DNA from: Psammoneis japonica
Lineage: Eukaryota
Direction: 5' to 3'
DNA: 64,000 nt
Assembly (NCBI GenBank): GCA_008632985.1
Contig: QPGO01000222.1
Location: 1 to 64,000 of the forward strand
Part shown: positions 7,466 through 64,000 of the stretch, piece after piece
Position numbering within the stretch: the first letter of the stretch is position 1
How the letters are laid out: each line of letters starts with the position of its first letter
Made by a program: the position numbers and the translations under genes
The notes under the pieces: generated by a model
What the model was told of the DNA's origin: nothing
Seen by the model: only the letters and a program-made list of their open reading frames with translations
Database searches by the model: none

Positions 7466-10250
7466 TGTTGTTTTTGGCGATCGGACATTTTGGAAACAGT
7501 TCTGTGGTATGATATTCTCGTATATTTCTACGATGAACCTGATGTCACAAAAAATCAAACCCACTCGTGTTTCAAACAAGATGATGATCTCTTCTTCACG
7601 CAAAAACCACACAATCTCACGATGCTTTCAAGCACATCCACAATGTCCAAACAAACAATGAGATACAACCTTTCTTCCGTACCGTTCCAATGGAGAGCAT
7701 GGGGCGTGCTCGCATGAGCGTCGGCGACAAACGCAGCAGGCTGTTGACCGAAGACGAGGTTTCCCGCGACATGAAGCTTTCGACAAGCGGACGTCCTTCG
7801 AAACGTCTCCAATGGCAGTCATCGGTTCAGTTGAGCGTCATTCCAAGCAAACACGATACCTCCAACGTGTACTTGCTGGACGAATCGACGGGCATCAATG
7901 CATCCTCAACAACATCCGAGCAGGAATCACGACAAGGCATTTCGAAACCATCTCGTCTGGAAGTTCAGCCGGAGCTTTCAGATTGGTCACCGATATACTT
8001 GGGTTCAGACGAGTCATCGCTACTCCGATGTATAATGAGAGCTCCCAGCACGATCACTTTGCAAGTGTTGTGCAACAGATTGCTGGCCAGTCTTCGAGCG
8101 AATGCTTGTTTGTCGATCCGAGTTGTGGTCACAAGAGGTGGTTTCGGCACACATGCAGTACGGAACTTGGTTCACGCAAACGTCGTCGGACTTCCTACAA
8201 GCAAGTTGGTGACAGCGTTCTTGTTGGTTCCATTCACAAGGAGAGCAGTGACAATGGAAACAACCATCTGGCATTCGGCTGGGGACGTCCAAAGCCTTGT
8301 TCATGTGTGAACGACACTTGCTTTCCTCGCACGCGTCGAGACCTCCACCCAAAGACTATCCGTGCCCCGAGGAAACGCCGTATGGATGAGCACTCCAAGC
8401 CTGACCATTCATTGTACGTTATGGAGAAGCTGTCTGTTCAAGAATCATCGAATGAATGTTTCATGGACACCTTCTCCGGCGACAAAAGGAAGTATCAGCG
8501 CAGAGCATTGGGTTCTCGGAAACGACGCCATTATCACACCGTGATCAAGATGATGTATGCGGTGGCATTATCGGTAGACTCAGCGCTAGTCCTGAGGAGA
8601 GCAGTCAGAGTGTAAGTCATTTTGTCGTTTGTATTATCGCTCCTTTTCGTTGACAATTGACTAAAACCTATTTCTACTTCTACTTTACTCTCTACAATCA
8701 CAGCTTGCACCTGATACATCGAGTCAACACGAGACATCTTCCATTGCATCTGTTGCGGCAGAGAATCCTCTCGATGCGATTCTTTTAGATGATGATCACG
8801 TCCAAGAGGTGACGGTTCCTGCAGCGGCGAGTACGGTGCAAGATGACCCTTCCGATTTCGATGCGTTTGGTCCAGATCATCACAATGACTTGCACGAAGT
8901 GTTGATTGGTGAACAACAATTGGAAGGGTCTCACTTGCCTGCTCCGGACAAGGATGGTCCCTTCCACAATATGGCATCAGCAATGGCGGTGCCTTCAGCG
9001 TGCGAGGTTCCGTCCGACGATGAGGCTTCCGTTCCAAATCAACACAATGGCTTGCCTGAAGTCTTGGGAGAAGATCGAGAAGAAGAAGGGCGTGTCGAAG
9101 TGCGGGAATCCCTCATTACGGATCACCGTGCTTCTGACAGCGACGATCCTATCCACGAGACGGCGTCAGCAGTGGTGGTACCTTCGGCACAAGAGATCCC
9201 TGCCGACGAAGGCAATGAGAACCTTCCAGACCAGCATGGTGGAGACGAAGTTGTTGGTGGAGACGGAACAGGCAGAAGGTCAACACGTTCAAGCACCTAC
9301 ATCCCTCATTACGGATTCAATCATTCCAAGGCGGTCTGCTCGGCTTAGAGCAGCTTTGGGAAGCGTGTATGTCCTCTCTGCCGATGGGAGAACTGTTCGA
9401 AGGTCCGCTAGAATCTTGAACCGGCGACATGACGCCGTTGGGTAGTTCGAGTGCATGCGGGAAAGAAGAAAAACACGGGAAGAGAGAAGAGCGGGAATTA
9501 GAGATAGCGAGAAAGGAGCTGGAGTTAGAGACAAGGAGTGGAGCATTTGTAGAAGAGAGAAAAAGAATCGGGGAAATGGCGAGGCGGGAAGAAGACTGGG
9601 TTCGGAAAGGACTGCAGGTAGTAACACTCACACTTGCCTTTGCTTGCTTTACAAGTTCCCGAATGGAAGAATTGAGTCTGGCAGCGGCTTTTCTGACCAT
9701 ACTCTGGATCCGTGTGTATGAATAAGCATGGTGCAGTTGCTTTTGTGATCGTATCGATCGGTAAGTTTCGGGTGAGCAGCGATATTCTATCCAACAGAAT
9801 CTTCGTGGCGCCTGCAGTTCGGCACATATAACGCACAGCACGTACCTGCATATTCAACATTTTGGATTCAGCTTTATGGCGATGGAAAGCTCAATGCCTG
9901 ATTCAATGATTCCTTCTTGGGACTGAAAAAGCAAGATTGGCCGTGGACAGTCAGTGTGTTGCTTGCACCGTGGACGGATCCAGACTTGTTTCTGCAATGG
10001 AGTACTTGATGATTTTAATACCTTTACTAGTCGGAAAGATTTCTGTGGGGTTTCAAAGAAACAAAAAAATAGTATGGTTGTGTTAGCAAATTCGGTAGGC
10101 GTACGGAGAGTTTTGAAGCCGCACGTTCAAATGCACATGCGTAAAGCTCATACCTTCTACAATCGCAACGTAGGCTTTGTTAACTCAGTGTGTAGTTCTT
10201 CAAGCATCGATACGATGTCCTTCGAGCATCGACTTTGTCTTGTAAGTATC
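7466..10250 (+). mobile_element. Dispersed gene-carrying repeat 'R', copy 1 (retains most TpA)
   Basis: Aligns by eye with 34867-37627 and 59456-62002. All three copies start at ATGT(T/A)GTTTTTGGCGATCGGACATTTTGG with unrelated upstream flanks. Confidence 0.8.
7622..9445 (+). CDS. Two-exon hypothetical Ser/acidic-rich protein with C-terminal double RRSAR motif (copy 1, several 1-nt frameshifts)
   Basis: Homologous to the intact copies at 35013 and 59611. Intron GTAAGT(8612)...CACAG(8703). Ends IPRRSARLRAALGSVYVLSADGRTVRRSARILNRR. Confidence 0.55.
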
Positions 10251-10759
10251 GTCCATCGCAATGCTTGCCGTTCGATCTTGTCGGACTCGATGAATCCCTT
10301 TTGAGACTGAAAAAGCACCATTGGCCGTGGACAGTACGGTACGGTGCAAACCTATTTTATTGAAAGGTCTTTTTTCTTTTTGGACTGACGGCGGTAGCAT
10401 CTTTTGTGTTATCAACCAGAAGCGCAAAAAACGCCAATGGTGACGCTCTTCTTCAAAAGTCGCTTCGAGAGGGGACGTCCTTGAGTGGATGCTTGTAGCT
10501 AATGTTCTTGAATCGTTTGCAGTTGCAATCGCCTACATGGTATGGAATGCTTGTACTCGTAGTTGTTTTCTGCTGTTTGTGTCTTTCCAGAGAGCATGCG
10601 CATGGACTATCTAGAGATGTCTCAGGACGCCCTCATGCGTCAATCTCAAGGGACGATAAAGCAGTTCAAGACGACGCCCTACCTGGTACTATTGAACGTT
10701 GCTTTAGAGGCGCTGCCACGAGTAATAGCGCCGTATATCAGAGTAGCTCGCTGCCTGTA

Positions 10760-12524: not shown

Positions 12525-12599
12525 GGTGTTTGTTTCTGCGAACAGCTCAGCACCTATTAATAGTTGACTCCATCGACTAAAAATCTACAGCACAACTTC

Positions 12600-15500
12600 G
12601 TCGTTGAATCTGCGACCCCAGTCATCTTCGATGGACTGGACCTTTCATGCTGGAACCAAAAACTGCATTGTTTCCTTTCTCTGCACTTGACTGGAGGCAG
12701 TCAATCTGGTGGAGCAAGATGATGACATGCTGGACATAGATGGTCATGGTGAAAACTCACTCCTCTCTTGTGGATGTTTGCACAATGCAGATGTGTTTTC
12801 ATCCCAGGTGAGAAACGCGCATGCGGAGGTGAGACGTTTCGTCTGTCCCTTTTCCGTCGCCGTGCTTTTTGTGCGAGCAAATCTGACTGGACTTTCCCCC
12901 GATTTTTCGTTTCTTCTTTCCACAGCCATGTTTGTTTTGAAAAGCCAGCCGTTGTTCTCATTGGTTGAAGGGTGCGCACAAGAAAAGCGCTGTCTCGAAA
13001 GCGGCATTTTTTGGAGTGAAGCTGACAGCTGTCTGCTCGTTGTTGTCATTCTGGTGCATTTGAGAGACCACTCTGCTGTTTCTTTCACCGAATCTGGCTG
13101 CTTTGAAAGAATGTGCGCATTGTTCATTGTACAAAGAGCTCATGCCAAAAAAGAACGGCATTCTAACTCTGTTGTTTGCACAAGAAAAATCGGGGGAACT
13201 GACTTCGCACATGATTTTTTTGCGCGATCGGCCATTTCAAAGATCGACTGATTTGTCGACCTGTGTGGGATGCTTGAGTGAACAAAACAACAGGATTGAA
13301 ACAGCAGCATCAAAGTTCAATGTGTGTCCAGATGTCATGTGATTTGATGTGCCCAAGCAGAGTTAAAGATGAAATGTTGACAAAATTTCACCGCTCAAAA
13401 TGACTGGTTCTATCTTAGAATAAAACAAAATGGCCGCAACACTGAGATTTCTGCTTTACAATGATGAAACTGTCACACTTGCATCTGAGATTCTTCACCC
13501 TTGCACACCCTCAAAACCAAACACATGACGATTCTCTTGTCGGCAGCGAAATCTGATGTTGTCGCGCGACCCAAAAGCATCATCCATGACGACTCAAAGT
13601 GCGGACGACACATCACAAGAATCACAGCAACGTGCCACAGAAACATTCTTCGTTGTCAGCATCCAGTGTCAAGCAGATGGAGCAGCGCGTTGATGAGAAT
13701 CCTGCTTCGCAAGCTGAGGAAGAGAGAAAGAGGCATCAAAAATGTCATGAGTCAAAAGGCCATCCACAAGGCACAACAAAAAACAAAGATCAAATTTTCA
13801 ACCACATCATCGCACTGAGCGTTGTCTCATTAACCTGTCTCGGCATTCTTGCCTTCTCAGTCACAACATCCGTTGGTGTGAGAATGGACGAGTTCATGGC
13901 GACGGCATGGTGCCATTTTCGGTTTGCGCGAATTGTGGTTTGTGGTTCGCGACATGGAAAAATACATTTTTACTGTCATGGAGCTCGTTTTTTACTGAGA
14001 TTTTTGGCACTAAATGTACGTCTCATGTAGAAACACGTAGAAAACCTCGTGATGTGTCCAAAAGTTTCTCACAGGGACACAACCATGTCCCTGGTTTCTC
14101 ACCTGGGATGAAAACACATCTGCAACATGTGTGTGAAAAATCAAAAGATGCACTTTCAGCTTAAATTTGCTTCATTCCAGATCCCCTTTCTGGCTCCCGG
14201 CATCATGAAAAGGCCCACACAATCAACAGGAGAAAAATGCTCCTGCTGCATCTTTGGCCTTTCTGTGACATCACAAAATCATTGCAGACATGTTGATGTT
14301 GCTGCGCTGTCTCCAACATTTTCACACTTGTTAAAATTCAGCAGATGAGTTCACAATTGTTGTTTTGTGCGAGACTGATGAGACCTGTCTAAGAGCTGAG
14401 TCCATCTGAAGCAAGGCCATTGTGTGGGACTTGTTTCCGCACAATTGTGCAAGACTTTTTGTTTTTTGTTTTGCAGCCAGTTTCCCATGAAACACTTCTT
14501 GTTGCAAGCATTTGTGAGCAAGATGTTCCAAATGCATCTGGAACAAAACAGTCACAACTTTCACTGAGCAATCATTTGACCCACCAAACTGTCTCTCCTG
14601 TGGCCCCAATTGTCTTGAATTGTCAGGCTGACAGCTCAAAAAGACACAAACACACACACAGGAGGAAGAAACAAAGGGGGGGAGCAACATCTTTGCAGCA
14701 TTTGGTTGAAAACAGCAGTGACAACATCAGGCAATTTGCATGGTGACAGAGTGATGACAACAGGAATCAGGAACCATGCATCACTGGGGTTGTTGCTGGC
14801 AGCAGGGAAAGCCAGGGATGACACAAAACAGATGAGCGTGCATTGCCAGCAGCGTGTCAGCAACAAGTTTGGGGGGAACTGGACCCAGCAACAAGAGGGC
14901 AGTTGCTCCAGCAGCAAGCAGTGTGCGACACTCAGGCAGAACTGCTTCTTTGTGCCAGCAACAACTGGTGTGCTGGGGCATCAGCAGCATGGGTGCAGGC
15001 ATGCTCAGACACATTGCCAGAGTTGCAAGGAATGTGACTGCCCAAAATTTGCACCAGCAAACTTGCACAACTGCTGGTGTTCTCACAAGCTTTGCACTGG
15101 CTGCCTCCAGCTGCTCCTTGTGCAGTGTGCTGGCATCCCACAGAACCTGGGTTGTTTGTCAAATGACCAGACTGGACTTGCACAGGTGCTTTTTAACTCT
15201 CAATGAAAAAGAAAGCACTGTGTTGAGGTGGTTTGGACAATGTGCACAAAATGGGTGCCCACATGTGCCTCAAGCCCCCCCCGCTGTGCTGGCAATGCAC
15301 ATCATGGCTTCATTGCTTCGCTCACATCTGTTTCATTTCAGGATTGTGGGCATGACATCAGTGTTCATTGTGTCCCATGTCTCAACAATGGTTGAGCCTC
15401 TGCAAGATTTTCCACAAAGTCACCACACCAAAAGGTGTGGGCATGCACAGCTGTCTTGTGTGGAGTGAAACATTTTCTGAGTGTGCATGACCAATGCAAT

Positions 15501-18500
15501 TGCTGCACAGTGCCACCAGGTGCACACTCTCCTGTTTCAACTGGCCCAGAAAATGAGATGCAGACAAGTGCCACATGTTTGTGAAGCAACAAGTTTCTTT
15601 TTTGAGGCACTGTTTGCTCCCAATGCCATGGCTCTAACAAGAGCATACAGAGATGCAAAAAGGCACTCACAATGGGAGATGCAATGGTGGTGGGTGTCAC
15701 AAGTTGCCACACAACTGGTGCATGCATTGCAATCATGGCCATTGCAGCTGCAATGGCATGCTGGCATTTAGGATTTGACACAAATTCTGGAAACTGGAAG
15801 CTGACTTGACTTTTTCATCCTCAATTGTGCGCGTCAATCTCAAATTTGTTTTTGGAAGTGCTGCAGTGGTGACAATGTGTCATCTGACACTTGGTTCCTT
15901 TTCTAAATTGTTGTGCAATGCCCAATGAGTTTGCATTGTGCAGTGGACTCCTCTGTCCTCTTTGGTGTCCTCAGACTCATTTTTTAGACACAAGACACCA
16001 CCACTCAGGTTCATCACACATGCAACCCTCCACCATGATCAACACAACACCTCCTGGTCTTGTTCCAGCTTTGCAGACTTGTTAAAAGCACATGTCACGA
16101 GTGAACAGATGAGCCATTGAGCACTTGATGGAAGGCATTTGAGGATTGAAAAAAACACCAAAAGTCTGGTTTTTAAGTGCTGCTGTGCTTCCACCCCACA
16201 ACTCTGACAACAAGCTGACCCACACCCCCAGCACACAAACAGTGCAGCAGGAGCATGAGAGACAACTTGCCAGATTTGGCATCACCAGTGGGCAGTGCAC
16301 TGAAACAACTTGCAATTGTCCTTGTGCATCTGGCAGCCAAACATTTGGCTTCTTTGATGCCAGACTTGAACATGGGTTTGACCATGGCCAACCAACTGCA
16401 AAGACAGTGAGCAGAGTGGTTGCTGTGTTTTTCAACCAAATCCATGAGATGCACTCTGTCCTTTGCCAGGCAGTCATCCATTTGTGAATGAAAAGCTTTC
16501 ACTTCCACCTCTGCATCATGATGCTGCAAAGACTTCCTCATTTCAGAATCATGGCCATGTGCAGCACAGTCATGGGAATCCCACAACTCCCGCCAATGCT
16601 CCCAAGTGCAATTGCCCACAGTGGCAGTGGCAGCATGCATTTCTTGTGGATTCAGTGTGTGCATCTGTGTTGGCATTGCCAGAGGTCAATCACAACCAGT
16701 TGCAAGCACAACCAACCTTGTCACTTGCTTTGAATGACTCCTCTTTGTCCAAATCCTCAGTGCCCAACAACAGATTGGACAAACCAAACTGGGCTTTCTT
16801 TTGCACCATGGAGCCAGATGCCAATGGCAACATGTCAAGAAAGAAAAAGAAGAAAAGTCACCGCTGTGACACTTGCTCCCAATGTCTTGGATTGCTGTCC
16901 CAAGAGTCAAGATGATGTGGGCCGGAGCTCCCAAAGCACATTCATTCTTTTTGCTTTCCAAATGAATGCAATGAGTCTCCAGACAAAATGTTGCAAGCAT
17001 TGTGGACCATGGTGTTGACGTTGAGCAAGGAGCATCACTTGTGTGCGCTGCCATTCTTGCAAGAACATGGAGGTGCAAGCCATGCATCACAGTCACATGA
17101 CAAGAAGTGTCTGATGAAAAAGCCAAAACAAGGCACTGTGCATTGGCCAAAATGTCTGGTGTGACACTTTTGCATTGCTCACACTTTCATGGTTTTTGAG
17201 TGTGTTTTTGCAGCAACTGCACAACCTGGCTGCAAGAAATGAAGAGTCACCACTTCCATTGGAATGGCACATTGCATGCTTCTTTTGTCAAGACATTCTG
17301 CCCCCATCTCTTGCCACACATGCAGAATGCCTTCAGGTGCCACTCAAGAACAATGCAGTGGCTTCATTGTGGCTGCTGTTTTCTGCTGTTTTGAGCTTGT
17401 CAAACATCTTGGCAATTTGGGGGACACTGCTTCAAGAAGAATGCATTGGCTTGTGCTCACAGTGTTGATCTTCACTCCTCCCACCCATGACCAAAGCCTT
17501 GTCAAGTCTGCTTGCCCCATTTGAGTTGCAAGGATTGCACATCCCAGTGTTGCCATCACAAATGAAATTGGGTGGTCTTTCTTGATGCAGCTGCTCCACG
17601 CATGGCAGGCATTGATGGTTGATGGGGTGATGCACCTTTTCTGGTTTTTTGCACAAGACAATGAGACATGGTTGCACACTGTCTTTTGGGGTTGTTCTTG
17701 TTGCTGTTTGCACCCCACAAGACACATGTGGGAGCCAATGGAGAATTTGATTTAGGAGGCTTTGACAAGTCAATGCCAAGTCTCTCAAAAGCAGGTGTGC
17801 AGCTCTTGCCAGCAAAGCCAGAAACTCCATCATTCAAAGGCTTCCTCATTGCAATGGGGTCAAATGAGCCAAATGGAGCAGCCTGTTTGTTTGACCAACA
17901 CACTGGTTTTCAAAAGGAAAATGACACATTGTTCAACTCGTTGGCAAGAAAATGCACTGAGAAACCATCCCTGCATTGCCCTTGCTTTGTGGAGCAGGGA
18001 CAGGCTAAATGCATCACTGTGCAAGCTGGACATTGCAGCTGAGGGGTTTGCAGTGGAAGCCCCTGTCACCACACAAATGGCTTTCTCTTGGCACATTGAA
18101 ACAAGATGAATCACTGCACAGCAGTCTAAGAGCTTGTGGCCCTGTCAATGCCAAAGACATCTCACTTTGCTTGGTGCTTCATTGTGCTGGTCAACAAGCC
18201 CACAATGCATGTCTGCCAATGTGCAACATGGGGAAAGTGCACTGAATGTTTCGTGCATCAGTGGTGAGGGGAGTGGGCTCTGTGGAAGCAATGCTGAATT
18301 CCATTGTGGAGAATGGCTCCAAAAAAGACAATGTTCATTGTGAACAAACCCAACATCAGTTTTGGCCTCTGATGTTTCCACCAGGATGGAGCCAAACACT
18401 CTGTGAGCAGCCAAATGAAAGAGCATGCAAACATTTTGTGAAGTCAAAAATGATGAGTTGGGCTCATTGGATTTTCTGTGAGATTCTCTGGCACAGTTTT

Positions 18501-19350
18501 TGCACATTGATGAATGATGCCTGATGCAACAACAAGTGGCCATCATCTTGCTTGCCACACAATTTCAAGTTTTGTTGCAACAAACACTGTTGTTGCCAAG
18601 AATCTGTCCTCGTTGATGCTGCCCCCCCCCCCCCCCCCACCCCCTGACAGGCCCCAGTGTGTGNNNNNNNNNNNNNNNNNNNNNNNNNNNNNNNNNNNNN
18701 NNNNNNNNNNNNNNNNNNNNNNNNNNNNNNTGATTGATGAAAGGAGCAAGCTCTTGCCACTTGCTTTTGTCTCCCATGACAGCAATCTTCAGAAGATTCA
18801 CATGTTGGTCCACAATTTTTCAAAAGCTTTTCCATGAAGCCTTGTGGCTTTTGTTGCCTTGCAAGGTCACCACCGCTGCATGCCAAATTTCCCTCTTGCT
18901 GGGAATTTTGGATGCTTCAGAGAAAAAATGAGCAGAATCTGAAGGACGTGTCAATTTGGCCAATGAGATGCACAGGGACACAAAACAGAAGAGGTGATGA
19001 GCATTGGAGACAAGGTCAATTTTTTTAAAATCTTGGTGCTTTTGGTGGCACTGGCAACATGATGAACTTCGGCTCCATGTGTTGCATCTTGCATCTTGTT
19101 TCAGCAGGTGAGGGCTGTGTTTGGAATGTTTCTTCAACTGTTCATTTGTTTCACCATGACATCTTTGCTCATGCCCATGATCTGCAGTTCAGTCAGCCAA
19201 GCATCAGCACTTGCCCAATGCCTGATGAGAGACGATGTGTTGCACCTGGTTGTCACGTCGTTGAAGAGTGCTTGGTGAATGGTGCATTGTTTTGGTGCCA
19301 TTTTATGAAATCCACTGCATGCAATGCACAAACCTGTTTATTGGCATACA
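12600..19350. repeat. TpA-depleted tract; CpG retained to ~14100 and also depleted beyond
   Basis: Dinucleotide composition by eye; dense spurious Cys/His-rich ORFs. Confidence 0.8.
12788..14122. mobile_element. Non-autonomous Tc1/mariner-like TIR element (~1.34 kb)
   Basis: Perfect 29-bp TIRs: CAGATGTGTTTTCATCCCAGGTGAGAAAC (12788-12816) and its reverse complement (14094-14122). Ends are CAG...CTG, flanked by TG (left) and CA (right), the expected mutation products of a TA target-site duplication. Confidence 0.8.
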
Positions 19351-34780: not shown

Positions 34781-34866
34781 TATGTATGCCTGCTATTCTG
34801 TCCTCAGGACAAGATTCTGGGTCCATGCAGTCACGAATAACGGTATACTGTATTTCATTGCTTAAA

Positions 34867-37800: not shown

Positions 37801-39060
37801 NNNNNNNNNNNNNNNNNNNNNNNNNNNNNNNNNNNNNNNNNNNNNNNNNNNNNNNNNNNNNNNNNNNNNNNNNNNNNNNNNNNNNNNNNNNNNNNNNNNN
37901 NNNNNNNNNNNNNNNNNNNNNNNNNNNNNNNNNNNNNNNNNNNNNNNNNNNNNNNNNNNNNNNNNNNNNNNNNNNNNNNNNNNNNNNAGCAAACCCGAAA
38001 CCTTTCCACTGCGCCCCTGCTGACGACAGAAATGGACAAACTCCTGGTTGATTCCAGCTGCCTCATGAATCATCTCGTGAGCTTCTCACAACTACGAATG
38101 GTCCATCCCAAAGAAAAAGGATCCTCTTCGTAGCAGACATGTGTAAGGTTTGGGTGCATCCAGGGCGACTCGGCTGGTTCTCCAACACTGGCTTGTGCGC
38201 CAAGGGGGTCGGTAGTCGGCAACCATCATTTCAGCTTGCTGAAACATTCATCTTAATTTTTTTTAGGCTGAAAGATCTCGATTGGTGTAACCGGCAAAGA
38301 GGGTGCTTCAGAGGGATCGACAACATACGACAGCACTGGAGAGCAAAAAAAAAAGAAGCATGATCGAACCGATGGTGCCGCCTATGAGACATAAGAAACG
38401 TGCAGGCAAATCATGGGAATGAGTCAACAAGCGGGGAGCACCGATGGTAGTTCCGGCACATGTCGAGCACATGCCGGTTGGGCATTGATTTCTTTATCTC
38501 AAAGTAAGATTTCAACGGAAATTTTGGGAACACTAACAGGTGGGTAGGAGATAACAGCTTCTGCGCCATCAACGTCGTCCACAGGGTGCTCTTCACCTTT
38601 TCCTTTCTTCTCTTCCTCCTCCTCCTCTGAAGGATGCATGAACATGAAAATGATGACACCAAACTTAAGAGCCCCGTCCAGGCGCCCAGAAAGGACGGCA
38701 CACAAGCTGTCGTCCACAGCACTAACCCAAGACGCCAAATCGGCGTAACGGGCGAGAGGCATTTTTCATCGATTACTCTTTGAATGCTACCGAGTACGCC
38801 TTTCAACTTTCCTCCGACCAAGAAGGTTCAGCGCAATGTTCACAGGCTCGGAAGAGCTTTTCCACGAGATCCTCAAATTCAGCGATTCAGTCCATTCCGC
38901 AATGTCCATGGCATCCCATCTCACACGGCGACTTTTGCTGAGGATTTTGAGCGATCGAACTGCAGATCTTCATGATGACATTTCCAGCCCGAGCATGATG
39001 CACCGTAAGGCATTTCTTGCATTCATGGTAAGTAGTGCTCACCTGGTATGGCACGGGCAA
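34867..39060 (+). mobile_element. Dispersed repeat 'R', copy 2 (>=4.2 kb including N gap)
   Basis: Near-identical to 59456-64000 on both sides of the gaps (37988-39060 matches 62941-64000). Confidence 0.85.
35013..36841 (+). CDS. Two-exon hypothetical protein (~578 aa) with C-terminal double RRSAR motif (copy 2, open)
   Basis: Exon 35013-36005, intron GTAAGT..CACAG 36006-36097 and exon 36098-36841 join in frame. Confidence 0.65.
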
Positions 39061-40935: not shown

Positions 40936-40971
40936 GGTGTTTTAAAGCTCCGCCTTACTACAACTTATCTC

Positions 40972-44500: not shown

Positions 44501-47500
44501 CATGAACGCTGAGTGTCAACCTTGCTGCAATCAGATCAACAGATTGTGCAATGGCCAGCACTTTTGTCAGAAATGTGCAGCCAGTGACTCACTCAGTCAA
44601 CCCCTCGTTTTGTGTGGAACTTGGCAACAAAGTCTTTTTCATTGTCTTGATCCATCAAGTGTGGCTTTGCAGTCCTTTCCCAAAGATGCCTCCCAGAGAG
44701 AAGGATGCCAACGCTTCACCAACCTGTTGTCTGAGTCTGTTCCATGTCATGTGCAAGTTTGTTGACTCCTCCCAGCAGCTGATGACAAACAATTGCTTTG
44801 TTCCCAGCAAGACTGTTTCACACTGCTTGTTGTGATCATGCTGTGCAGATGTGACTGGTGCTGTCAGCACCATTCTTGCAAAGTCAAGACAATTCTCTCA
44901 GTCTTTGCCAGGCAAGTCAGAGCACAGCAATCTGGTTGCAGATGGCATGACAATGTTTTTGTTGTGTCATCACCACTTGTGAACAAAGGGGAAGTTGGCA
45001 GCAGACATCCTGCATCAATTTGATGATGGGAAGCTTCTGGCAAAAACAGGCAGGCAGGTCTAAAAAGGTCTGTCTTGGGAGCCTGAGGCACTTGGCACCC
45101 ACTTGGACCAGCTTTCTTGCTTCAAACTCACCTCTGGAATTCAAAAACATGAAGCATTGCTCAACTTGCTCAAGAGATGAGCTGAGAAATCTACATTGAA
45201 ATGAGAGAAAGTCTCTCCAAGCTGCAAGAGCACCATGGCTCCACTTTCTTAAATCATCTTGGGACTCTGAGGCCTCCAAGGGGAGCACTTGCAATTTGAG
45301 GAGAAGCTTTTCAAGCATCAGGCACAGTGCACAAGCCATCTTGGCCTTGGGGAATGCCCCCCCCTCTTGTGCGTGAAGCTTTCTGGCGGGAGCTTGGGCC
45401 AAAGCTTCACAAACGTCTGCTCCAGCTGTTCTCAATCAAGCAATCTGGACCAACAACATGTTTTGCAACATTTGAAAAGAAAGAATCAGCACAACAAGAT
45501 TTGGCCATGCTCAGTGTCAATGAAGACAAGCAGAAGCCTTGAGCATTTTTAAAATGAACTGCTCACTTGTCTGCAGTCTGCTTTGGTCTGCCAGCATTTC
45601 CACCCCCCTCATGGTTGAAAAGACACCTTGGCACATGAACACTGTGCAGATCGTCCACCAGCCAAACCCTGTTGCAACATTTCAGACCATGAAGAGACAA
45701 TTGTGCATCTTGTTTGATGTCAAGATGCTTCATCTTGAAACGGAAGTGACCGGGAATCAAAAAAAGACTGCACAACTGCAAATCACTCTTTCTTCTGCAT
45801 TCTGCAGCAGGATGACTTTTCTTTTGAGTCGTCCAAATTGCAGGATCTCAGACACATGCATTGCAGACAAAGCAGTGCCAGTTGAACATGCCACAACGTC
45901 TGTGTTGTCATTGGCTTTCTTCCCCATCCTCCTCACTGATCTCATCCTTGCCCAAAATGTTGTGCAAAACAGGATTGGTCTCACTGGGGGTGAGTCCTGG
46001 GGGTGATGTCTTCCTCTTGGATGCCTTTTTTGGGTGGCAAATTGGGCTTCAAATTTTTGGGAAGGGATTTGGAAGTCTTGGCAATCCTGTCAATGTCCAC
46101 ATTGACCTGGGAGAACAATGCAAAATTCTCTCCAGGACTCAAATGCAAACAGCATGCTAAAGACAGATCTCACACCATGAAAGTTTGGGAGCTGCACTTG
46201 AAAGTCATGCAGGTCTTGAAGGAAAGTCACAAGAGCACGCTTTGTTTTCTTTGGCTTTTTTCAAGGTTTGTCCTGACTGTTTTGCTTGTGTCTTTCACAC
46301 AAGGCCACCAACAAGAGTGGCTGCGTTGTTCTCACTGCTCACTTGAGAAACACAACAGTTTCATCATCGCAGTTGTCCCAACAGCATGAAGAGTTGTGAG
46401 CTGCTTTTTTGGTGGAAGCCCCTTTTTAGCATGACCCCAAAACTCTGTCACAAGAGCATGGTTCTCTGGCTGTGGAACTGAAGGGGGCGAAAAGAGGGAA
46501 GAGGGATGCCAAAGTTTTGTTTGCTGAAGCTGCTGCTGCCATGTGCAGTTTTTGGCAGAGCTGTGGCTGCAACAGCTCTCACCATGCAGGGGCCATTTGC
46601 TGCTGGTAAGATGCTCACGAAGATGAGTCGTCACTGATCCACCATGCAACACCTGACACTGGAAGCATGGTGTCAGCTGCCCCCGTGGCGATTGTTGGCA
46701 AATGCAACTCACTTCAAATCAAGATCAGCAGGGCCCCAATGCCAGCTAGATTGCTGTGGTGCCAGTGGCACAGGCTTCAGCCCAAAGCACTTTCCACTTT
46801 TGGTTTGGACAACAGCTTGCTGGTGATGAATTTGACACCTGCCACAGCTCTGCAAACATGGCTCATGGGATGGAAACAAGCATGCCAAGCAAAAAACTGA
46901 GTCAGGGTGGATGCACAATCGTCCAGTGCAATGGACTTGACCAAACTGCTGCCACTGGCAGATCATTGTCTTCCAAAAACTTGATTGCATGTTCATGGTG
47001 TTGGTGTGTGTTGAGAGCTGAGTTGTTCCCACAGCAAAGCAATGAATGTCTGCAGAATTCAATTGCCACAAAAATGCTCTCTCTGACAAACCGAGATGAT
47101 GCAAGTCATGTCTCATTTGCCGGATGGCATGTTAAAATGCATTTGATTGCAGCAATTCAATGGCAAAGAATCACGTGATGTGTGCAATGCCCCCTTTGAG
47201 AAATTTTGGTCCATCCAATCAAATGAACGCACCCAGAATTGAAAATGCCATCCAACCACGTGCTGCTGTCACTGCCACCATGACAAATGCAGACTGGCTT
47301 GAGAGAAGCTCACCACTCATGAGATTTGTTCAAAGCAGAAGGCAGAAGGTGCCATTGATGCTGACTGCCTCAGTCTTGCTGCACGTGCTCTTTCGTGATC
47401 ATTTGCGAGGATCCCTTTGTCTTTGAAAAATGATCCACAGGCCTTTGGACACACCACAGTGGGGCACGCCCCCCCCAATTTTCCATTGATCCTGCCACAT

Positions 47501-50500
47501 GGGCTCTGTGTGAAATGCAGCATGTTGCAAACCAAGTGGTCCAAAAGCACAATCGTCCACTCACAATGTTGTGCCGCACACACAGCACATGGAAAACACG
47601 CGCAAATGTTGTCTTGTTTCTTCAAATCACCCTGCTGTGTCCAAAGGCCCAATGATCTGCATTTTTCAATCAATCTTTCTTGGAAACAGAAACGGCAGCA
47701 CACCTCAAAGAAGAAGGGCTCTCACCTCCTCCACAAGAAGAGCCTCATCTGCCAGTGGACAGACTGGCCACACCTCTTCTTGAAGAAATTCAACTGGAAA
47801 TCATGTGCCTGAAGAACACAAACAAGTCATTGCAAATCAACGGGGCAAACAATGAATCCAAGCAACCCCAGGAGGAAGAGGATCAGCGGAGTTGGCACCC
47901 GCACAATGATGGTCACATCAGCAACAGCCACCACTTGCTTCTGCCCACTCAACGGTCTTGCAGCGGGCCCTTTGATGGCAGGACCTTCGACTTTGGGAGA
48001 GCCAGTTGCCACTGGTTTGACCAAATTTGGTGCCTGAACACGCTGCAGTGCTGAAGAGGAAACACAGTGCTGACTGATCATTTTTTCCACCCTGTTGAAG
48101 CCAAAGGTTTCTTTTGTGGCTTGGATGAGGAGGAGGAGGAAGAGGAAGCTGTCAATGCAGCACGCGATTGCAAGCAAACAAAGAGGGATCTCTCACTCTT
48201 TGATGCGACAAATGCCATGCAAAGGCCGCAAACAGTTTTGCACCAAGTTGGTCGCCCAAGCAACATCTGGGCAGGGAGATCATCACACGCATGACAGGCA
48301 TGGGTCTGAAATGAGGAAGAGAGTTGCCAACTCCGCACCACAGACTTCTGCGCACCAAATCCGCACCAAATCCACACCAAATCCTCACCACGGCATTTTC
48401 ATTGAATGTTTGACATCACCATCCATTGATGCATGTGCGCTGCCACATCACCAAATCAAACCAATTAAATTCCCCCCCCCCCCCCCCCCCCATCACCACA
48501 TGGAAAACAACAGACACAACTCTCACCGTTGTTGCATCATTGTGCCACACCAGTGCAAAAGTTGGAGTCAAAAGCACTGCCATGCCAGCCATTTGGTGCC
48601 ATCACACCACACATTGTTGGTGCATTGTCAGGTTCATGGTGCACCAGACCGGCAAAAGCACTGACACACCAGCCATCAGCCGTGCAAGCTGCAGCGCCAC
48701 TGGCTGGCACACCATGCAGTGCACAGCACCTCGTTGGCTTCACAGCATGCAGCACGGCAAAAGCATCAGGAACCTGCCACAGCAGCCATTGGCCATGCGA
48801 GCTGCAGCACTGGCATGCCACACATTGTCACCTTCATCACAACGGCAAAACTGCTGCCAGATCACCAGCGCAGCGTGTGGTGCCGGCAAAACCACTGCCA
48901 TGCTGGCCATTGTCGACACCAGCTGTGGTGCTGTCATGCCATGCACTGTCAGGTTCACAGCATGAGAACCCTGCCCAGAGAGTTGGTGTGCCACTGCTCA
49001 AACAGCGCAGGGAAATGTGTGACGGCGTCTCTGCCAGTGCTGCGCATCTTCCTGATTGGCTTGATCAGCGTGGTGCGGCCAACACTGCAGAGGAAGAGCC
49101 AAAGAAACAAAGCATGGAGCTGAAAGCAAAAGATTGGATCACACCGCGAGATGTGAAATCATGCACCAACTCCAGCTGACGTTTGCAGAGAGCCAAACAT
49201 TGAACAATGCAAGGCATCTTTTGAGCAAAAGGCTGATCAGCTCTTCCCTGTGGGCCAAGCATTTGCAAGTTGTGCCCAACTGGCAAAGGCTGCAAAGCTT
49301 TTTTTGGACATGTGGGGTGTCATGAGTTGTCACAAGCAAAAACGAGTAAATTGTTTCCACTCTGTGAGCACCAAGAAAAGCAAAAGAAAGGCTCAGCCGC
49401 TTGCTGAGAACTCCAGCAGTCGCAATGTGGGCCCATCCTTGAAAAAGCAATGCAAATGCCCACTTCACATTGAGCACAGTTTTGTGAGGAAAGTCAAGGA
49501 TCCATTCACAGGAAAGGTTTGGCCTGACATGTTTTGCAATGTCAAGATGACAGGTGCCGTGTACAAACACACGTGTGACCTCCACACGGTTTCCCATCGA
49601 GTGGCAAAGCAAGCAAGTGGCTCAATTCAACCGAGCTCAGAGGGGCTCCAAAGCACCATTGATGATCTCAGGCTTGAACCTTGCATGAAAGCCGAGGATC
49701 TGCGTCCAAAGCTCCTCAAGCATTTGCCGTTGCACATCGGATGCAAAATTCATCAGAACGCAAAATTCATCAGCAACTTTCGCAGCCTTGTCAGCAAATG
49801 GACATTGCAGCATGAGGAAGACAAAGAGGGTGTTGTGTGAAGATCTGCAGCAACTTGCATCAAAGCACCCCATTGCATCAGATGAACTTGTTGTGCCAAC
49901 CTTTGGCATCAGATGGTGTCAGCATGCATGCTGTGCAAGCCCCGTTTGGCACCTTCAACATTCCATGGGTGGAGAAGTGGCAGTTCCAGCAGCAGCAGGT
50001 GCAGTGCAAAGTGCCTTTCTCACAGCCTGACTGGTGCTGTGTCCCCTTCTTGTCACCCGACTGTAGAAATTGCAGTGGCAGCAGCAGAGGCTCTTGCAGC
50101 AGCAGCAGCCAGTGGCAGTTGTTGCCCCACCAGAGTGGCAAGTGACAACAGCCACAACTGCAGTTGCAGCAGCATTCACAGCGGGAGTGCCGCAGTGATG
50201 CCCTGTCCCCTTCTCATCACCCAGCTGGTGCCGCACCCCCTTCCAGCCACACAACAATCTGAGTGGCCATGGGGACAGATGTCAATGCAAAACAAATGGG
50301 TTGAGAAAACAAAGAAAGAGAGTCAGCGCTGAGAATGTGTGTGAGATGTCCACCACAGCACTGCACCTTGTCCCCTTGTTGTCCTCAACCAACCAAAGGA
50401 ATCCCTGTCCACAGCAGTTGCAGCTGCAGCAGCAGTCACATCAACAGCAGTCACAGCAACAGTTTTCGCCCCCCCACAAGAGTCGCAAGTAAAAACAGCC

Positions 50501-51100
50501 ACAGCAGCAGCTGTGGCAGCAGTTGCAGCAGCAGTTGCAGTGGCAGCACCACATCCCCTTCTTGTCACCCAAGAGTTGATGCAGAGAGTGCGTGCTGGAT
50601 GTGCTCACCATGGAGCATGAGATGGAGATTCAGAGACAACAAGCAACAAGCTGGGTGCGCGCACAAATTCTGCCTCTGCAAGAAGCCATTGAGAAATGCA
50701 GCAGTGCTGGAAGAGAGAAACAGCATCAAAGACAGCACACTCACTCACCAGAACTCGCCAGTTCAACAACATTGTCGGCAGCAGCAGGGAAAAACACTCC
50801 AAACACACCAGCCAGCCAAAAGGAGTGAAAACACCAGAAACTCCGGAGGTGCAAACAAACAAACACCAACATCTCACTCAGCGTGCATTGGCTCCCACCC
50901 ACACAGTGTCATCCCAGTGACATTCAATTTATGAACGGGGCCAAGTCTCCACAATGCTGCAGTGCTGTTCTCAGCGAGCGATGACTTGGACGACGCTTCC
51001 AACTGCCGTGTGTGCTGTGTGCCGGGCATGCGCTTGTGTTGACGCGTGTTTTTTTTTTGTTCTTTTCGCGGTGCTCGACAACACTGCATTATTATGGCAT
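41600..51100. repeat. Large TpA- and CpG-depleted tract of degenerate TE/repeat DNA
   Basis: Composition by eye; contains tandem duplications and a MULE relic. Confidence 0.8.
42692..43271. repeat. ~300-bp direct tandem duplication
   Basis: CTGACAGAT(T)GGCTTGTGTCTGTCACAGATCAAGCC...GAGCCAGCACCCAAAA occurs at ~42692 and ~42991. Confidence 0.9.
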
Positions 51101-51337: not shown

Positions 51338-52264
51338 GACTCTACCGGTACTCTCTACTCTATCTCTAGCTAGTAGCTACAAGGAGTACGGTAGAGAGTA
51401 GCTAGCTAGAGAGAGTAGAGAATATAGAGAGTAGCTAGCTCTAGCTAGAGTAGAGAGTAACTCTCATGAGGAGCCAAGGTTTCGTTCCGGCGCACCAAGA
51501 TGCCCGGAGAAAGATGCGAGCTGACAACCAACGACGCAAGGATTTTGCACATCTCTGAAGGGAAGACAGAGCATTGTCGTTCAGACCTGAGCTGGGTCCA
51601 GAGGATGAGGGTGGTCCCAAACATTGTGCTGGCACATGACATCGGAGAGTTTCTCAATGCTTCGGTCAACACCTGTGCCGGCATGCAGCGGTGAACTCAC
51701 TGTGCCGCTTGTCCGTCCTGAGAACCCAAGCATTGACATTCCCCTCAAGGAATGATGGTTTTCCGGTCTTTGTGGGGACCCACGCGGAACTTGACAGTGA
51801 AGCTTCTTTTGATCGTCATGATTGCTTTCATTGGATGCTGGGCAGGCTGTGCGACGGCTTCGCGATAATGACACTGTCGTTGACCTGTGGCGAGCCCAGC
51901 TTTTCGCATGTTGTTTCCCAAGATTGACTTCGTTTTTCTTGCACGATGTCGCGCTTGTTGCAAGGTATCTTGGATTCAATGCCGACGCATCGGAAGCACG
52001 GCCTTGCCTTCCAGTTGAAACAGTTGGTGACACTCCCCCGAAGTGGGACGACACGACTCCAATCTATCTACGCGCAACCATTCTTTGTTTTCGAGACACT
52101 GTTGAGTACGGTAATTTCATCCCGGTGAATGTCTACGTCACATTCGAACTCGTGATATGCTTGTATCATCTTTCTAGTTAACCTTTTCCAAGATATGTAT
52201 CACACGAAGATCGACACTCGAGCTGTTGCACCAAGTAATTCACTCATAACGTCAAAAGAAAACA

Positions 52265-57807: not shown

Positions 57808-58191
57808 GACGGAAGCAGCGTCTCGCAGCAGATATACCGGACAGCCCTATGGTACCTAGCTAGCTATATTGTAGTAGAGATCTGGCATTCTACCCCGCTA
57901 AAGTGAATTCTGTTTCCACCACACAACCTAACAAACAAAGCATACATGCCACCAATCGTTGGTCATCTTTCTGCTTAACTGCTTCTCCAGTTCATTACGA
58001 GACGGAAGCAGCGTCTCGCTGCAGATGTTCCGGACAGACCCTACCTATGGTACCTACTAGCTAGCTACATAGTAGTAGAGTTCTGGCATTCTTCTTCACT
58101 AAAGTGAGTTCTGTTTCCACCGCACAACCTAATACAAAAAGCATAGATAGCACCAATCGTTGCTTATTTTTCTTCTAAACTGCTTCTCTAG
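57808..58191. repeat. ~190-bp tandem duplication between the convergent ALG7 and GRX3 3' ends
   Basis: GACGGAAGCAGCGTCTCGC...TTCTGTTTCCACC.CACAACCTAA...AACTGCTTCTC occurs twice (~57808 and ~58001). Confidence 0.85.
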
Positions 58192-59294: not shown

Positions 59295-59455
59295 AATGAT
59301 GTTGTGCTCTCTTTGGGGTTGACGATGGATTCGTTCTTCCTTTATTCTTTATTTTGTCTTTGTCTTGTTTTGTCTCACGCTTGCTCTTGCTCTCACGCGA
59401 GAGAAATCGAAATAAATTTTCGCCTGCCCATCGCCCGCTTCGGGTTGTTTCATAA

Positions 59456-62400
59456 TGTTGTTTTTGGCGATCGGACATTTTGGCAACAGTTGTCTAGTAT
59501 GATATTCTCGTATGTTTCTACGATGAACCCGATGTCACAAAAAATCAAACCCACTCGTGTTTGAAACTTGAAAACAAGGTCTCTTCACGCAAAAACCACA
59601 CAATCTCACGATGCTTTCAATCACATCCACAATGTCCAAACAAACAATGAGATACAACCTTTCTTCCCGCACCGTTCCAATGGAGAGCATGGGGCGTGCT
59701 CGCATGAGCGTCGGCGACAAACGCAGCAGGCTGTTGACCGAAGACGAGGTTTCCCGCGACATGAAGCTTTCGACAAGCGGACGTCCTTCGAAACGTCTCC
59801 AATGGCAGTCATCGGTTCAGTTGAGCGTCATTCCAAGCAAACACGATGCCTCCGATGTGTGCTTGCTGGACGAATTGACAAGCATTGATGCATCCTCAAC
59901 AACATCCGAGCATGAATCACGACAAGGCATTTCGAAACCATCTCGTCTGGAAGTTCAGCCGGAGCTTTCAGACTGGTCACCGACATGCTTGGGTTCAGAC
60001 GAGTCGTCATCGCTACTCCGATGTTACAATGAGCACTCTCAGCACGATCACTTTGCAAGCATTGTGCAACAGATTGCCAGCCAGTCTTCAAGCGAATGCC
60101 TGTTCATCGATCCGAGTTCTGGTCACAAGAGGATGTTGCGGCACACATGCAGTGCGGAACTTGGTTCACGCAAACGTCGTCGGACTTCCAACAAGCAAGA
60201 TGATGAGGTCGTTCTTGTTGGTTCCAGTCACGAGGAGACTTGTGACAACGGAAACAATCATCTGGCATTCGGCTGGGGTCGCCCAAAGCCTTGCTCATGT
60301 GTGAACCACATCTGCTTTCCTCGCACGCGTCGAGACCTCCACCCAAAGACTGTCCGTGCCCCGAGGAAACGCCGCATGGATGAGCACTCCAAGCCTGACC
60401 ATTCATTGCACGTCATGGAGAAGCTGTCTGTTCAAGAATCATCGAATGAACGTTTCACAGACACCTTCTCCGGTGACAAAAGGAAGCATCAGCGCAGAGG
60501 GTTGGGTTCTCGGAAACGACGCATTGTCACACGTGATCAAGATGACGCATGCGGTGGCATTGCCGGCAGACTCAGCGCTGGTCCTGAGGAGAGCAGTCAG
60601 AGGGTGAGTCATTTTGTCGTTTGCATTGTCACTCCTTTTCGTTGACAATTGACCAAAACCTGTTTCTACTTCTACTTTACTCTCTACAATCACAGCTTGC
60701 ACCTGACACATCGAGTCAACACGAGACATCTTCCGTTGCGTCTGTTGCGGCAGAGAATCCTCTCGATGCGATTCTTTTAGATGATGATCACGTCCAAGAG
60801 GTGACGGTTCCTGCAGCGGCGAGTGCGGTGCAAGATGACCCTTCCGATTTCGATGCGTTTGGTCCAGATCATCACAATGACTTGCACGAAGTGTTGATTG
60901 GTGAACAACAATTGGAAGGGTCTCACTTGCCTGCTTCGGACAAGGATGGTCCCTTCCACAATGTGGCATCAGCAATGGCGGTGCCTTCGGCGTGCGAGGT
61001 TCCGTCTGACGATGAGGCTTCCGTTCCAAACCAACACAATGGCGTGCCTGAAGCCTTGGGAGAAGATCGAGAAGAAGAAGAAGAAGAAGGGCATGTCGAA
61101 GTGCGGGAATCCCTCACTGCGGATCACCGTGCTTTTAACAGCGACGATCCTATCCACGAGACGGCGTCAGCAGTGGTGGCACCTTCGCCACAAGAGATCC
61201 CTTCCGACGAAGGCAATGAGCGCATTCCAGACCAGCACGTTGGTGGAGACGGGTTGATGGTGGAGACGGAACAGGCAGAAGATCAGCACGCTGTTTCACC
61301 CACATCCCTCATTACGGATTCCGTCATTCCAAGGCGGTCTGCTTGGCTCAAAGAAGCTGTGGGAAGCGTGCATGTCCTCTCTGCTCATGGGAGAACTGTT
61401 CGAAGGTCCGCTAGAATCTTGAACCGGCGACATGGCACCGTGGGGTAGTTCGAGTGCTTGAGGGAACGAAGAAATACATGGGAAGAGAGAAAAGTGGTAA
61501 TTAGAGATAGAGAGAAAGGAGCGGGAGTTAGAGAAAGGGAGTGGAGCATTTAGAAAAGAGAGAAAAGGAATCGGGGAAATGGCGAGGCGGGACGAAGACT
61601 GGGTTCGGAAAGGACTGTAGGCAGCAACACTCACACTTGCTTTTGTTTGCTTCACCAGTTCCAAAGGGAAGAATTGAGTCTGGCGGCGGGTTTTCTGACC
61701 ATGTGCTGGATCCGTGTGCATGAATCATCATGGTGCAGTTGCTTTTGTGATCGTGTCGATCGGCAAGTCTCGGGTGAGCAGCGACATTCTATCGAGTACA
61801 GAATCTTCGTGGCGCCTGCAGTTCGGCCCACATTACACACAACACGTACCTTTACATTCAACACTACGGATTCAGCTTTGTGGGGGATTGAAAACTCAAA
61901 GCCCGATTCGATGATTCCTTTTTGGGCCTGAACAAGCACCATTGGCCGTGGACAGTGTGCTGCTTGCACCGTAGACGGATTCAGCATTGGTTTTGCGTGA
62001 AGNNNNNNNNNNNNNNNNNNNNNNNNNNNNNNNNNNNNNNNNNNNNNNNNNNNNNNNNNNNNNNNNNNNNNNNNNNNNNNNNNNNNNNNNNNNNNNNNNN
62101 NNNNNNNNNNNNNNNNNNNNNNNNNNNNNNNNNNNNNNNNNNNNNNNNNNNNNNNNNNNNNNNNNNNNNNNNNNNNNNNNNNNNNNNNNNNNNNNNNNNN
62201 NNNNNNNNNNNNNNNNNNNNNNNNNNNNNNNNNNNNNNNNNNNNNNNNNNNNNNNNNNNNNNNNNNNNNNNNNNNNNNNNNNNNNNNNNNNNNNNNNNNN
62301 NNNNNNNNNNNNNNNNNNNNNNNNNNNNNNNNNNNNNNNNNNNNNNNNNNNNNNNNNNNNNNNNNNNNNNNNNNNNNNNNNNNNNNNNNNNNNNNNNNNN

Positions 62401-64000
62401 NNNNNNNNNNNNNNNNNNNNNNNNNNNNNNNNNNNNNNNNNNNNNNNNNNNNNNNNNNNNNNNNNNNNNNNNNNNNNNNNNNNNNNNNNNNNNNNNNNNN
62501 NNNNNNNNNNNNNNNNNNNNNNNNNNNNNNNNNNNNNNNNNNNNNNNNNNNNNNNNNNNNNNNNNNNNNNNNNNNNNNNNNNNNNNNNNNNNNNNNNNNN
62601 NNNNNNNNNNNNNNNNNNNNNNNNNNNNNNNNNNNNNNNNNNNNNNNNNNNNNNNNNNNNNNNNNNNNNNNNNNNNNNNNNNNNNNNNNNNNNNNNNNNN
62701 NNNNNNNNNNNNNNNNNNNNNNNNNNNNNNNNNNNNNNNNNNNNNNNNNNNNNNNNNNNNNNNNNNNNNNNNNNNNNNNNNNNNNNNNNNNNNNNNNNNN
62801 NNNNNNNNNNNNNNNNNNNNNNNNNNNNNNNNNNNNNNNNNNNNNNNNNNNNNNNNNNNNNNNNNNNNNNNNNNNNNNNNNNNNNNNNNNNNNNNNNNNN
62901 NNNNNNNNNNNNNNNNNNNNNNNNNNNNNNNNNNNNNNNNAGCAAACCCGAAACCTTTCCACTGCGCCCCTGCTGACGACAGAAATGGACAAACTCCTGG
63001 TTGATTCCAGCTGCCTCATGAATCATCTCGTGAGCTTCTCACAACTACGAATGGTCCATCCCAAAGAAAAAGGATCCTCTTCGTAGCAGACATGTGTAAG
63101 GTTTGGGTGTATCCAGGGCGACTCGGCTGGTTCTCCAACACTGGTTTGTGTGCCAAGGGGGTCGGCAACCATCATTTCTGCAATTGCCGAAACATTCATC
63201 TTTTTTCTTTTAGGCTGAAAGATCTCGATTGGTGCAACCGGCAAAGAGGGTGCTTCAGAGGGATCGACAACATACGACAGCACTGGAGAGCAAAAAAAAA
63301 AAGAAGCATGATCGAACAGATGGCACCGCCTGTGAGACATAGGAAACGTGCAGGCAAATCATGGGAACAAGAAGTCAACAAGCGGGGAGCACGGACGGCA
63401 GTTCCGGCACATGTCGAGTACGTACCGGTTGGACATTGATTTCTTTATCTCAAAGTAAGATTTCAACGGAAATTTTGGGAACAGTTGCAGGTGGGTAGGA
63501 GATGACAGCTTCTGCGCCATTAACGTCGTCCACAGGGTGCTCTTCACCTTTTCCTTTCTTCTCTTCCTACACCTCTGCAGGATGCATGAACATGAAAAGA
63601 ATGACACCAAACTTAAGAGCCCCGTCCAGGCGCCCAGAAAGGACGGCACACAAGCTGTCGTCCACAGCACTAACCCAAGACGCCAAATCGGCGTAACCGG
63701 CGAGAGACATTTTTCATCGATTGCTCTTTGAATGCTGCCGAGTACGCCTTTCAACTTTCCTCCGACCAAGAAGGTTCAGCGCAATGTTCACAGGCTCGGA
63801 AGAGCTATTCCACGAGATCCTCAAATTCAGCGATTCAGTCCATTCCGCAATGTCCTTGGCATCCCATCTCACACGGCGACTTTTGCTGAGGATTTTGAGC
63901 GATCGTACTGTAGATCTTCATGATGACATTTCCAGCCCGAGCATGATGTACCGTAAAGCATTTCTTGCATTCATTGTAAGTAGTGCTCACCTGGTATGGC
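59456..64000 (+). mobile_element. Dispersed repeat 'R', copy 3 (appears most TpA-eroded in the gene; runs off the window)
   Basis: Near-identical to 34867-39060. Starts ~160 bp upstream of the GRX3 ATG. Confidence 0.85.
59611..61448 (+). CDS. Two-exon hypothetical protein (~581 aa) with C-terminal RRSAR motif (copy 3, open)
   Basis: Exon 59611-60603, intron GTGAGT..CACAG 60604-60695 and exon 60696-61448 join in frame. Confidence 0.65.

Follow-up and report, generated by a model that had tools for sequence, protein, structure and literature searches.

A natural mutator that edits genomic adenine in a two-letter context has so far been known from one preprint, of 2026, which deals with a chlorarachniophyte. 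In that alga, Bigelowiella natans, mutation-accumulation lines yielded 302 new point mutations, of which 231 lay within two viral insertions; 230 of these 231 were A>G or T>C, all of them on TpA, and the rate was about 6e-7 per site per generation (Mettrop et al., bioRxiv 10.64898/2026.01.13.699255). In the target the rate of new mutations is reported at about 1000 times the background, and an ADAT2-like deaminase has been proposed for this organism (bioRxiv 10.64898/2026.01.13.699255). That main text contains no mention of CpG, context, trinucleotide, diatom or stramenopile, and our full-text literature search returned this one description of such a process and nothing comparable for diatoms. 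Here we present a stretch of 64,000 nucleotides, referred to as the window (contig QPGO01000222.1, positions 1 to 64,000, of the Psammoneis japonica assembly GCA_008632985.1), which contains a three-copy repeat and several blocks of DNA nearly free of the dinucleotide TA. The initial annotation of this DNA knew of no description of such a system, which is out of date given the report of TpA A>G hypermutation in B. natans (bioRxiv 10.64898/2026.01.13.699255). In our view, selected segments of the window probably underwent directional hypermutation, with A changed to G after T on either strand, so that repeated rounds remove TpA and amass TpG and CpA.

The repeat pairs were found by BLAST of the window against itself. 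The unit is of approximately 2.5 kb, and its copies, with their TA and CG contents expressed as ratios of observed to expected (O/E), are the following:

7465..10208, strand not given: repeat copy c1, with the fewest mutations (83 TA, TA O/E 0.46), used as outgroup.
34865..37627, strand not given: repeat copy c2 (59 TA, TA O/E 0.33, CG O/E 0.95), with an open two-exon orphan open reading frame (ORF).
59454..62002, strand not given: repeat copy c3, the most mutated (32 TA, TA O/E 0.21, CG O/E 0.95).
37988..39052: continuation (second part) of the c2 unit past an N run (TA O/E 0.38).
62941..64000: continuation (second part) of the c3 unit past an N run, cut by the window end (TA O/E 0.38).

Identity is 89.8% between c1 and c2, 90.8% between c1 and c3, 95.8% between c2 and c3 and 94.4% between the two second parts, and the three copies differ mainly at TA/TG/CA sites. 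The individual sites quoted in the initial annotation read in the three-way alignment just as given there: TA/CA/TG in c1/c2/c3 at 7870/35262/59860, TA/CA/CA and TA/CA/TG at positions 7994 and 7996 of c1, TA/TG/CA at 8493/35889/60487 and TA/CA/TG at 8669/36063/60661. The splice donor at 8613/36007/60605 reads GTAAGT, GTAAGT and GTGAGT, so that c3 has changed as claimed. Overall, seven sites are discordant in that c1 has TA, one of the later copies CA and the other TG (7870..7871 being one example). The same pattern was said to separate the second parts in both directions, and there TA is exchanged with TG or CA in 12 of the 26 transitions, six each way. It is also correct that CpG has been largely preserved, with CG kept in all three copies at 127 sites vs 16 for TA, and 52 CG in each of the second parts.

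The enrichment becomes evident when the changes are counted per target. The three-way alignment comprises 2520 columns, the node state being the letter common to two of the three copies. In it, 157 differences are confined to c1, and the counts for c2 and c3 are 38 and 51. Among those of c3, 30 of 51 are A>G or T>C, 20 of these 30 lying in TpA, and for c2 the corresponding values are 16 of 38 and 12 of 16. Since the split of c2 and c3, T[A>G] has hit 20 of 99 targets on the c3 branch and 11 of 99 on the c2 branch, against 19 of 2388 on each branch for the seven other transition classes pooled. The proposed enrichment of A>G at TpA over other transitions thus stands at 14- to 25-fold per target. 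Compared with other contexts of A, where A>G after C, A or G affected 10 of 1137 targets (c3) and 4 of 1137 (c2), the TA context has Fisher p values of 3e-16 (c3) and 5e-10 (c2). The c3 branch has 30 A>G/T>C vs 9 C>T/G>A; the c2 branch has 16 vs 15 overall and 11 vs 7 in the TpA context. T[A>G] exceeds the reverse T[G>A] on both, 20/99 vs 2/398 in c3 (p=3e-13) and 11/99 vs 7/398 in c2 (p=1e-4). The mutator has thus acted since the most recent duplication, and did so in c2 and c3 independently of each other.

A force that is not targeted at all, be it selection that disfavours UpA or rare NTA codons, or GC-biased gene conversion among copies, would find some footing in the under-representation of TpA in ordinary genes as well (O/E 0.61) and in the weak-to-strong character of the changes, which is what biased conversion favours. 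Such conversion, however, predicts that other contexts of A>G should be raised too, and these are low: A[A>G] 0–5/345, G[A>G] 0–1/393 and C[A>G] 4/399. TA has also been lost in the intron and in the 3′ non-coding parts. Specifically, 61 TA sites of c1 have a pyrimidine-purine step in both c2 and c3, and 45 of them were lost in c2 and/or c3, distributed as 27/29 in exons, 5/9 in the intron, 11/16 in 3′ non-coding and 2/7 in 5′ non-coding sequence, so that the loss is not confined to coding sequence. Taken with the blocks and the older duplicate pair described below, this leaves us with little belief in a non-targeted force.

Both strands have been affected equally, with 25 TG and 27 CA outcomes among the shared, c2-specific, c3-specific and discordant events, and the process therefore acted at the DNA level. 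Along c3, a hand count revealed no runs of TG or of CA outcomes (10 runs vs about 10.9 expected), so that there is no sign of processive single-strand events at the scale examined in this copy. ADAR-type RNA editing fixed through retrotransposition was also considered as a source, and is ruled against by the 25 TG and 27 CA outcomes and the 10 runs where 10.9 were expected.

The base that follows the target also matters. Changes per target were 24/43 for TAC, 19/39 for TAT, 4/16 for TAA and 5/22 for TAG (chi-square p=0.027), and the TA that remain in the TA-free blocks (see below) are mostly YTAR (Y, pyrimidine; R, purine), 34 of 45, comprising 17 TTAA, 15 CTAA/TTAG and 2 CTAG, compared with 160 of 952 TA in genes. 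In YTAR the TA is followed by a purine on both strands, and these survivors agree with the preference for the following base since either strand reads TA plus purine. Thus, TAY is preferred over TAR and YTAR sites survive.

Polymerase eta is known to introduce A>G errors in WA motifs (W, A or T). The same directional TpA>TpG change might then arise without adenine deamination, by error-prone repair synthesis at TA of the polymerase eta type or by a lesion tied to a TpA-specific adenine modification; we allow this a minor but real chance. WA includes AA, yet A[A>G] amounts to 0/345 and 5/345 where T[A>G] reaches 11/99 and 20/99, and hypermutation errors of polymerase eta are strand-biased, as opposed to the 25 TG and 27 CA found here. 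TadA/ADAT substrates have a U33-A34 geometry, and a T or U before the target A fits it. The authors of the B. natans study also propose ADAT2.

The direction of change, TA being ancestral and TG/CA derived, was established in several ways. In purine/pyrimidine coding c2 and c3 are 98.5% alike and each is 95–96% alike to c1, and from this alignment, the transversions and the indels c2 and c3 come out as sisters. The contrary reading is that of ordinary C>T (CpA>TpA) change like that of fungal repeat-induced point mutation (RIP), under which TG/CA would be ancestral and c1, and partly c2, the mutated copies. To this we can give hardly any credence. The exchange of TA with TG/CA is indeed the exact dinucleotide class of RIP, c1 has the most TA (83 vs 59 and 32) and some diatoms are reported to have DNMT4 enzymes related to fungal RID (PMC9998398). 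But such a polarity requires that c1 and c2 both gained TA at 13 sites, where 1.59 are expected (Fisher p=7e-12), and c1 and c3 at four, against an expectation of 0.43. If C>T were the only change, every discordant TA/CA/TG site would have to start from CG and take four steps, and a CpG ancestor predicts CG/CA/TG sites, of which none was seen vs the seven discordant sites with TA in c1. Furthermore, TA declines from 83 in c1 to 59 in c2 and 32 in c3 while CG stays at 158–163 per copy. The reverse polarity thus failed the parallel-gain, discordant-site and composition checks. The strongest line for the polarity is provided by the window itself, as only a directional TA-loss process can yield DNA nearly free of TA. 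RIP would raise TA, whereas approximately 17 kb of the window are nearly without it (O/E 0.02–0.06), with TG/CA near 2 and an unchanged G+C content of 0.46–0.51; therefore the change has been a directional loss of TA and not a gain. These regions, and two further TA-depleted zones, are:

1..1408: block A, TA O/E 0.02 (2 TA vs 94.6 expected), CG O/E 0.07, TG+CA O/E 2.07; cut by the window start and an N run.
14401..19300: block B, TA O/E 0.02–0.04, CG O/E 0.07–0.21, TG+CA O/E 1.8–2.0.
41600..51089: block C, TA O/E 0.06 (37 TA vs 617 expected), TG+CA O/E 1.79, CG O/E 0.22 overall (0.03–0.19 on the left, 0.3–0.4 from about 47000).
12590..14400: TA-depleted zone to the left of block B, TA O/E about 0.18, CG O/E 0.74 (largely kept).
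51460..52060: short TA-depleted zone, TA O/E 0.07, CG O/E 0.87 (normal), with a 370-bp TA-rich stretch between it and block C.

Blocks A, B and C together hold 50 TA vs about 1005 expected. In the genes used for comparison (22.8 kb) the TA O/E is 0.61 and that of TG+CA about 1.15, and relative to them the blocks are down by 8.37 percentage points in TA+CG and up by 9.01 in TG+CA. The blocks consist of complex sequence and not of a microsatellite. Of 124 bins of 500 bp, 40 have a TA O/E ≤0.25, and they cluster, sharply bounded, in the three blocks, the repeats and the two short zones. In a control set of 26 diatom-like metagenome loci (181 kb) not one 1-kb window had a TA O/E ≤0.25, the whole-locus values being 0.58–0.94, although these are gene-rich contigs around P450 relatives and so uninformative on whether other diatoms have the system. 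Stop triplets in the blocks are 40 TAA+TAG vs 369 TGA, and long ORFs are many in all frames.

Some further observations were made within the blocks. The ends of blocks A and B beside N runs (1942-2132 and 18440-18629) have a 190-bp segment in common, identical in 72% of the letters and 88% in purine/pyrimidine coding, a hint that both blocks may end in the same element family; a search for hidden block copies with this coding retrieved only this pair and the known repeats. Block C contains a tandem duplication of approximately 290 bp (42690-42975 and 42989-43280), and its left edge is adjoined by an ORF at 40936-41493 that ends, as judged by eye, in the SNF2-type helicase motif QAIGRVFRPGQ. 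The TA-rich stretch at 51090-51460 has an O/E of 1.05, with a low-complexity run rich in CTAG/GTAG at 51330-51460, and has either escaped the mutator or been inserted at a later time.

On some sequencing platforms, modified adenine may be read as G and modified cytosine as T. A sequencing or assembly artefact, such as miscalls of modified bases that entered the consensus as transitions, has to be weighed, the more so as the read comparison covered the c1 region (7465-10340, with contigs built from one public run, X1). Among the public runs a single sample contains the stretch of the window, and it may be the assembly's own source sample, so that it is not independent support. Contigs of run X1 are identical to c1 over stretches of 383 and 332 bases, and letters and indels of the c2/c3 type are found on other contigs. 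If miscalls fell symmetrically on the two strands, TA would also appear at former CG sites, instead of both being lost. Within this single assembly the copies are unlike at TA sites, and the domain edges are sharp to within tens of bases. An artefact is on this evidence very improbable. In the same comparison 43 of 129 contig pieces were less than 90% alike to c1, and several joints skip or replace 60–216 bases, so the family appears to have variants beyond the three copies of the window, that is, further and more diverged members or alleles.

The edges of the mutated domains could be located within the repeats. In c2 and c3 the density of TA stays normal for about the first 65 bp of the repeat, the last dense TA being at 34930 and 59519, and then collapses, and the unique flanks of both copies have a TA O/E of 0.57–0.65. 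Such sharp domain edges are what targeting to repeats or silent DNA agrees with. Another duplication is found around c1:

4830-6325 and 10750-12239: older direct duplicate pair flanking c1, 84.1% identical.
11369-12439, minus strand: HAS1/DDX18-like DEAD-box helicase ORF in the right copy of the older pair.

This ORF has a degenerate motif VI (HRVIRTTR vs HRVGRTAR in the yeast protein) and is probably, as judged from its sequence, a decaying paralogue.

Several points weigh against a mutator aimed at repeated or foreign DNA. The older duplicate pair has no TA bias, with T[A/G] 9 vs 11 among 91 transitions, so that a duplication does not by itself suffice. Within the window, blocks A, B and C share no similarity with one another, also after purine/pyrimidine recoding, apart from the 190-bp end segment, and when 36 ORFs (≥130 residues) of the TA-free zones were compared with Pfam no credible domain emerged, the best E value being 0.0014 for a domain of unknown function; the repeat or foreign nature of the blocks is an assumption on our part. 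Only three copies could be aligned, the polarity being derived from parsimony and composition, and gene conversion from unseen variants of the family keeps some weight (43 of 129 read pieces <90% alike). On the other hand, blocks without recognisable genes and an unbiased older pair are not what selection on codons or biased conversion between copies would leave. The core of the initial annotation, a directional A>G mutator at TpA aimed at particular DNA, has been borne out by the polarity, the specificity for TpA, the balance of the strands and the sharp domain edges, all of them demonstrated here. Our view of the enzyme, of its trigger (which may be homology, foreignness or chromatin state) and of any activity today is inferred. 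An ADAT2/TadA-type enzyme would deaminate adenine to inosine in DNA, as proposed for B. natans, and in the service of genome defence it may be directed to DNA that is repeated, foreign or silenced.

CpG loss follows a different distribution. Of the 40 TA-poor bins, 30 have a CG O/E ≤0.4 and seven a CG O/E of at least 0.8, the latter located in c2, c3, 12501–13000, 13501–14000 and 51501–52000. Conversely, 30 of the 31 CpG-poor bins are also TA-poor, the exception being the bin at the edge of block C. The loss of CG is matched by a gain of TG/CA in blocks A–C only (CG O/E 0.07–0.22; the mass balance fits). We read this CpG loss nested inside the TA loss as two processes of different reach or speed. 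The TpA mutator would act first or more widely, and CpG decay would follow on long-silenced DNA. In the older TA-free blocks the latter may be a slower second process, 5-methylcytosine deamination on methylated dead elements. Diatom transposons are reported to be CpG-methylated through DNMT5a (PMC9998398), which provides a ready cause for the CpG decay in the blocks.

A broader reading can be held tentatively, as possible but on balance doubtful, in which TpA adenine hypermutation would be an ancient defence across the stramenopile–alveolate–Rhizaria grouping (SAR; here Rhizaria and stramenopiles). In diatoms it would be the mirror image of RIP, triggered or bounded by duplication, acting on duplicated cellular-looking genes and dead elements, and upstream of CpG methylation. 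If this were true, TA loss would mark newly targeted DNA and CpG loss would come later. That the same signature turns up in a diatom-like genome, and has gone much further there, suggests that such a system occurs widely among marine protists instead of being a one-species curiosity. Diatoms include genetically tractable models, so a knockout could reveal the enzyme and its targeting, and a natural DNA adenine deaminase would be of interest for base-editing research. There is also a practical consequence, as TA-free DNA keeps only TGA stops, which leads to long spurious ORFs and gene over-calling, with transposons and viral insertions hidden from annotation.

The repeat itself encodes, in c2 and c3, an open two-exon ORF of roughly 560 residues with an intron GTAAGT...CAG, c1 being frame-shifted relative to both. 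Exon 1 had no homologue at E≤1e-3 among 5.8 billion proteins, and exon 2 a single weak match, to a repetitive protein of 4307 residues, among 1.84 billion representatives. A>G at TpA only removes TAA and TAG or converts TAA to TGA, and because it can never create a stop codon the open frame in c2 and c3 is no evidence of function. Exon 2 contains an internal 81-bp duplication (8940-9020 and 9129-9209, in the same places in c2 and c3) that encodes an acidic Ser/Pro/Asp-rich repeat, and the protein has several basic runs of the KRKRR type.

The rest of the window, which includes four N runs, contains ordinary, mostly uninterrupted eukaryotic nuclear genes: a P450, an MFS transporter, an ABC ATPase, a 2OG oxygenase, ALG7 and a glutaredoxin, the last with a tandem duplication of approximately 200 bp nearby (57800-57991 and 57993-58192). 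Two of them are informative on the lineage:

28633-30504, minus strand: P450 ORF, best matches 43–53% identity.
56794-57750: ALG7 ORF, top identity 74%.

The homologues with an organism name were diatoms in 10 of 10 cases for the P450 and, among the matches listed (some names incomplete), in 7 of 7 for ALG7. From these two genes the host looks like a diatom. In neither search was the protein encoded by the window itself among the matches, so the species has no place among the annotated or MMETSP proteomes of the collection used, and this speaks against B. natans as the host.

Among the known systems, fungal RIP is alike in being a transition hypermutation of the same TA/TG/CA class that degrades repeats and dead elements. 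It differs in that RIP makes TpA by C>T with a falling G+C content, whereas here A>G destroys TpA and G+C is unchanged, and in that the host is non-fungal, all the named homologues of P450 and ALG7 being diatom. With respect to the dependence of RIP on duplication the comparison is mixed: the depletion starts approximately 65 bp inside the repeat edge, but the 84% pair is unaffected and the blocks are single within the window. The decay of CpG by 5-methylcytosine deamination on methylated transposons (PMC9998398) resembles the loss of CG to TG/CA in blocks A–C; however, it leaves the TA loss unexplained and is absent from c1–c3 and from 7 of the 40 TA-depleted bins. ADAR and APOBEC editing also produce clusters of deaminase-type transitions in parasitic sequences, and ADAR favours U before the edited A, but RNA or single-stranded editing marks one strand, while here both are equal and the targets include DNA-level segmental copies.

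The closest relative is the process of B. natans. Both consist of A>G/T>C at TpA only, on both strands and in discrete domains depleted in TpA and enriched in CpA/TpG, and many of the targets cannot be annotated in either. They differ in the host, a diatom-like stramenopile here vs a chlorarachniophyte, and in the kind of evidence, comparative here vs mutation-accumulation lines. The TA O/E of 0.02–0.06 compares with a Rho of 0.45 in their region of nucleocytoplasmic large DNA virus (NCLDV) origin, the duplicated unit has three copies here, with a domain that begins from the repeat edge, vs a main target in single copy, and the oldest blocks of the window have also lost CpG. Overall, the kind of process is already in print, and it is found here in a different major lineage and at saturation. 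Beyond what the preprint contains in its main text, this locus adds the preference for TAY with survival of YTAR, an action on recent duplicates that is bounded by the repeat, and a CpG decay nested within the loss of TpA.

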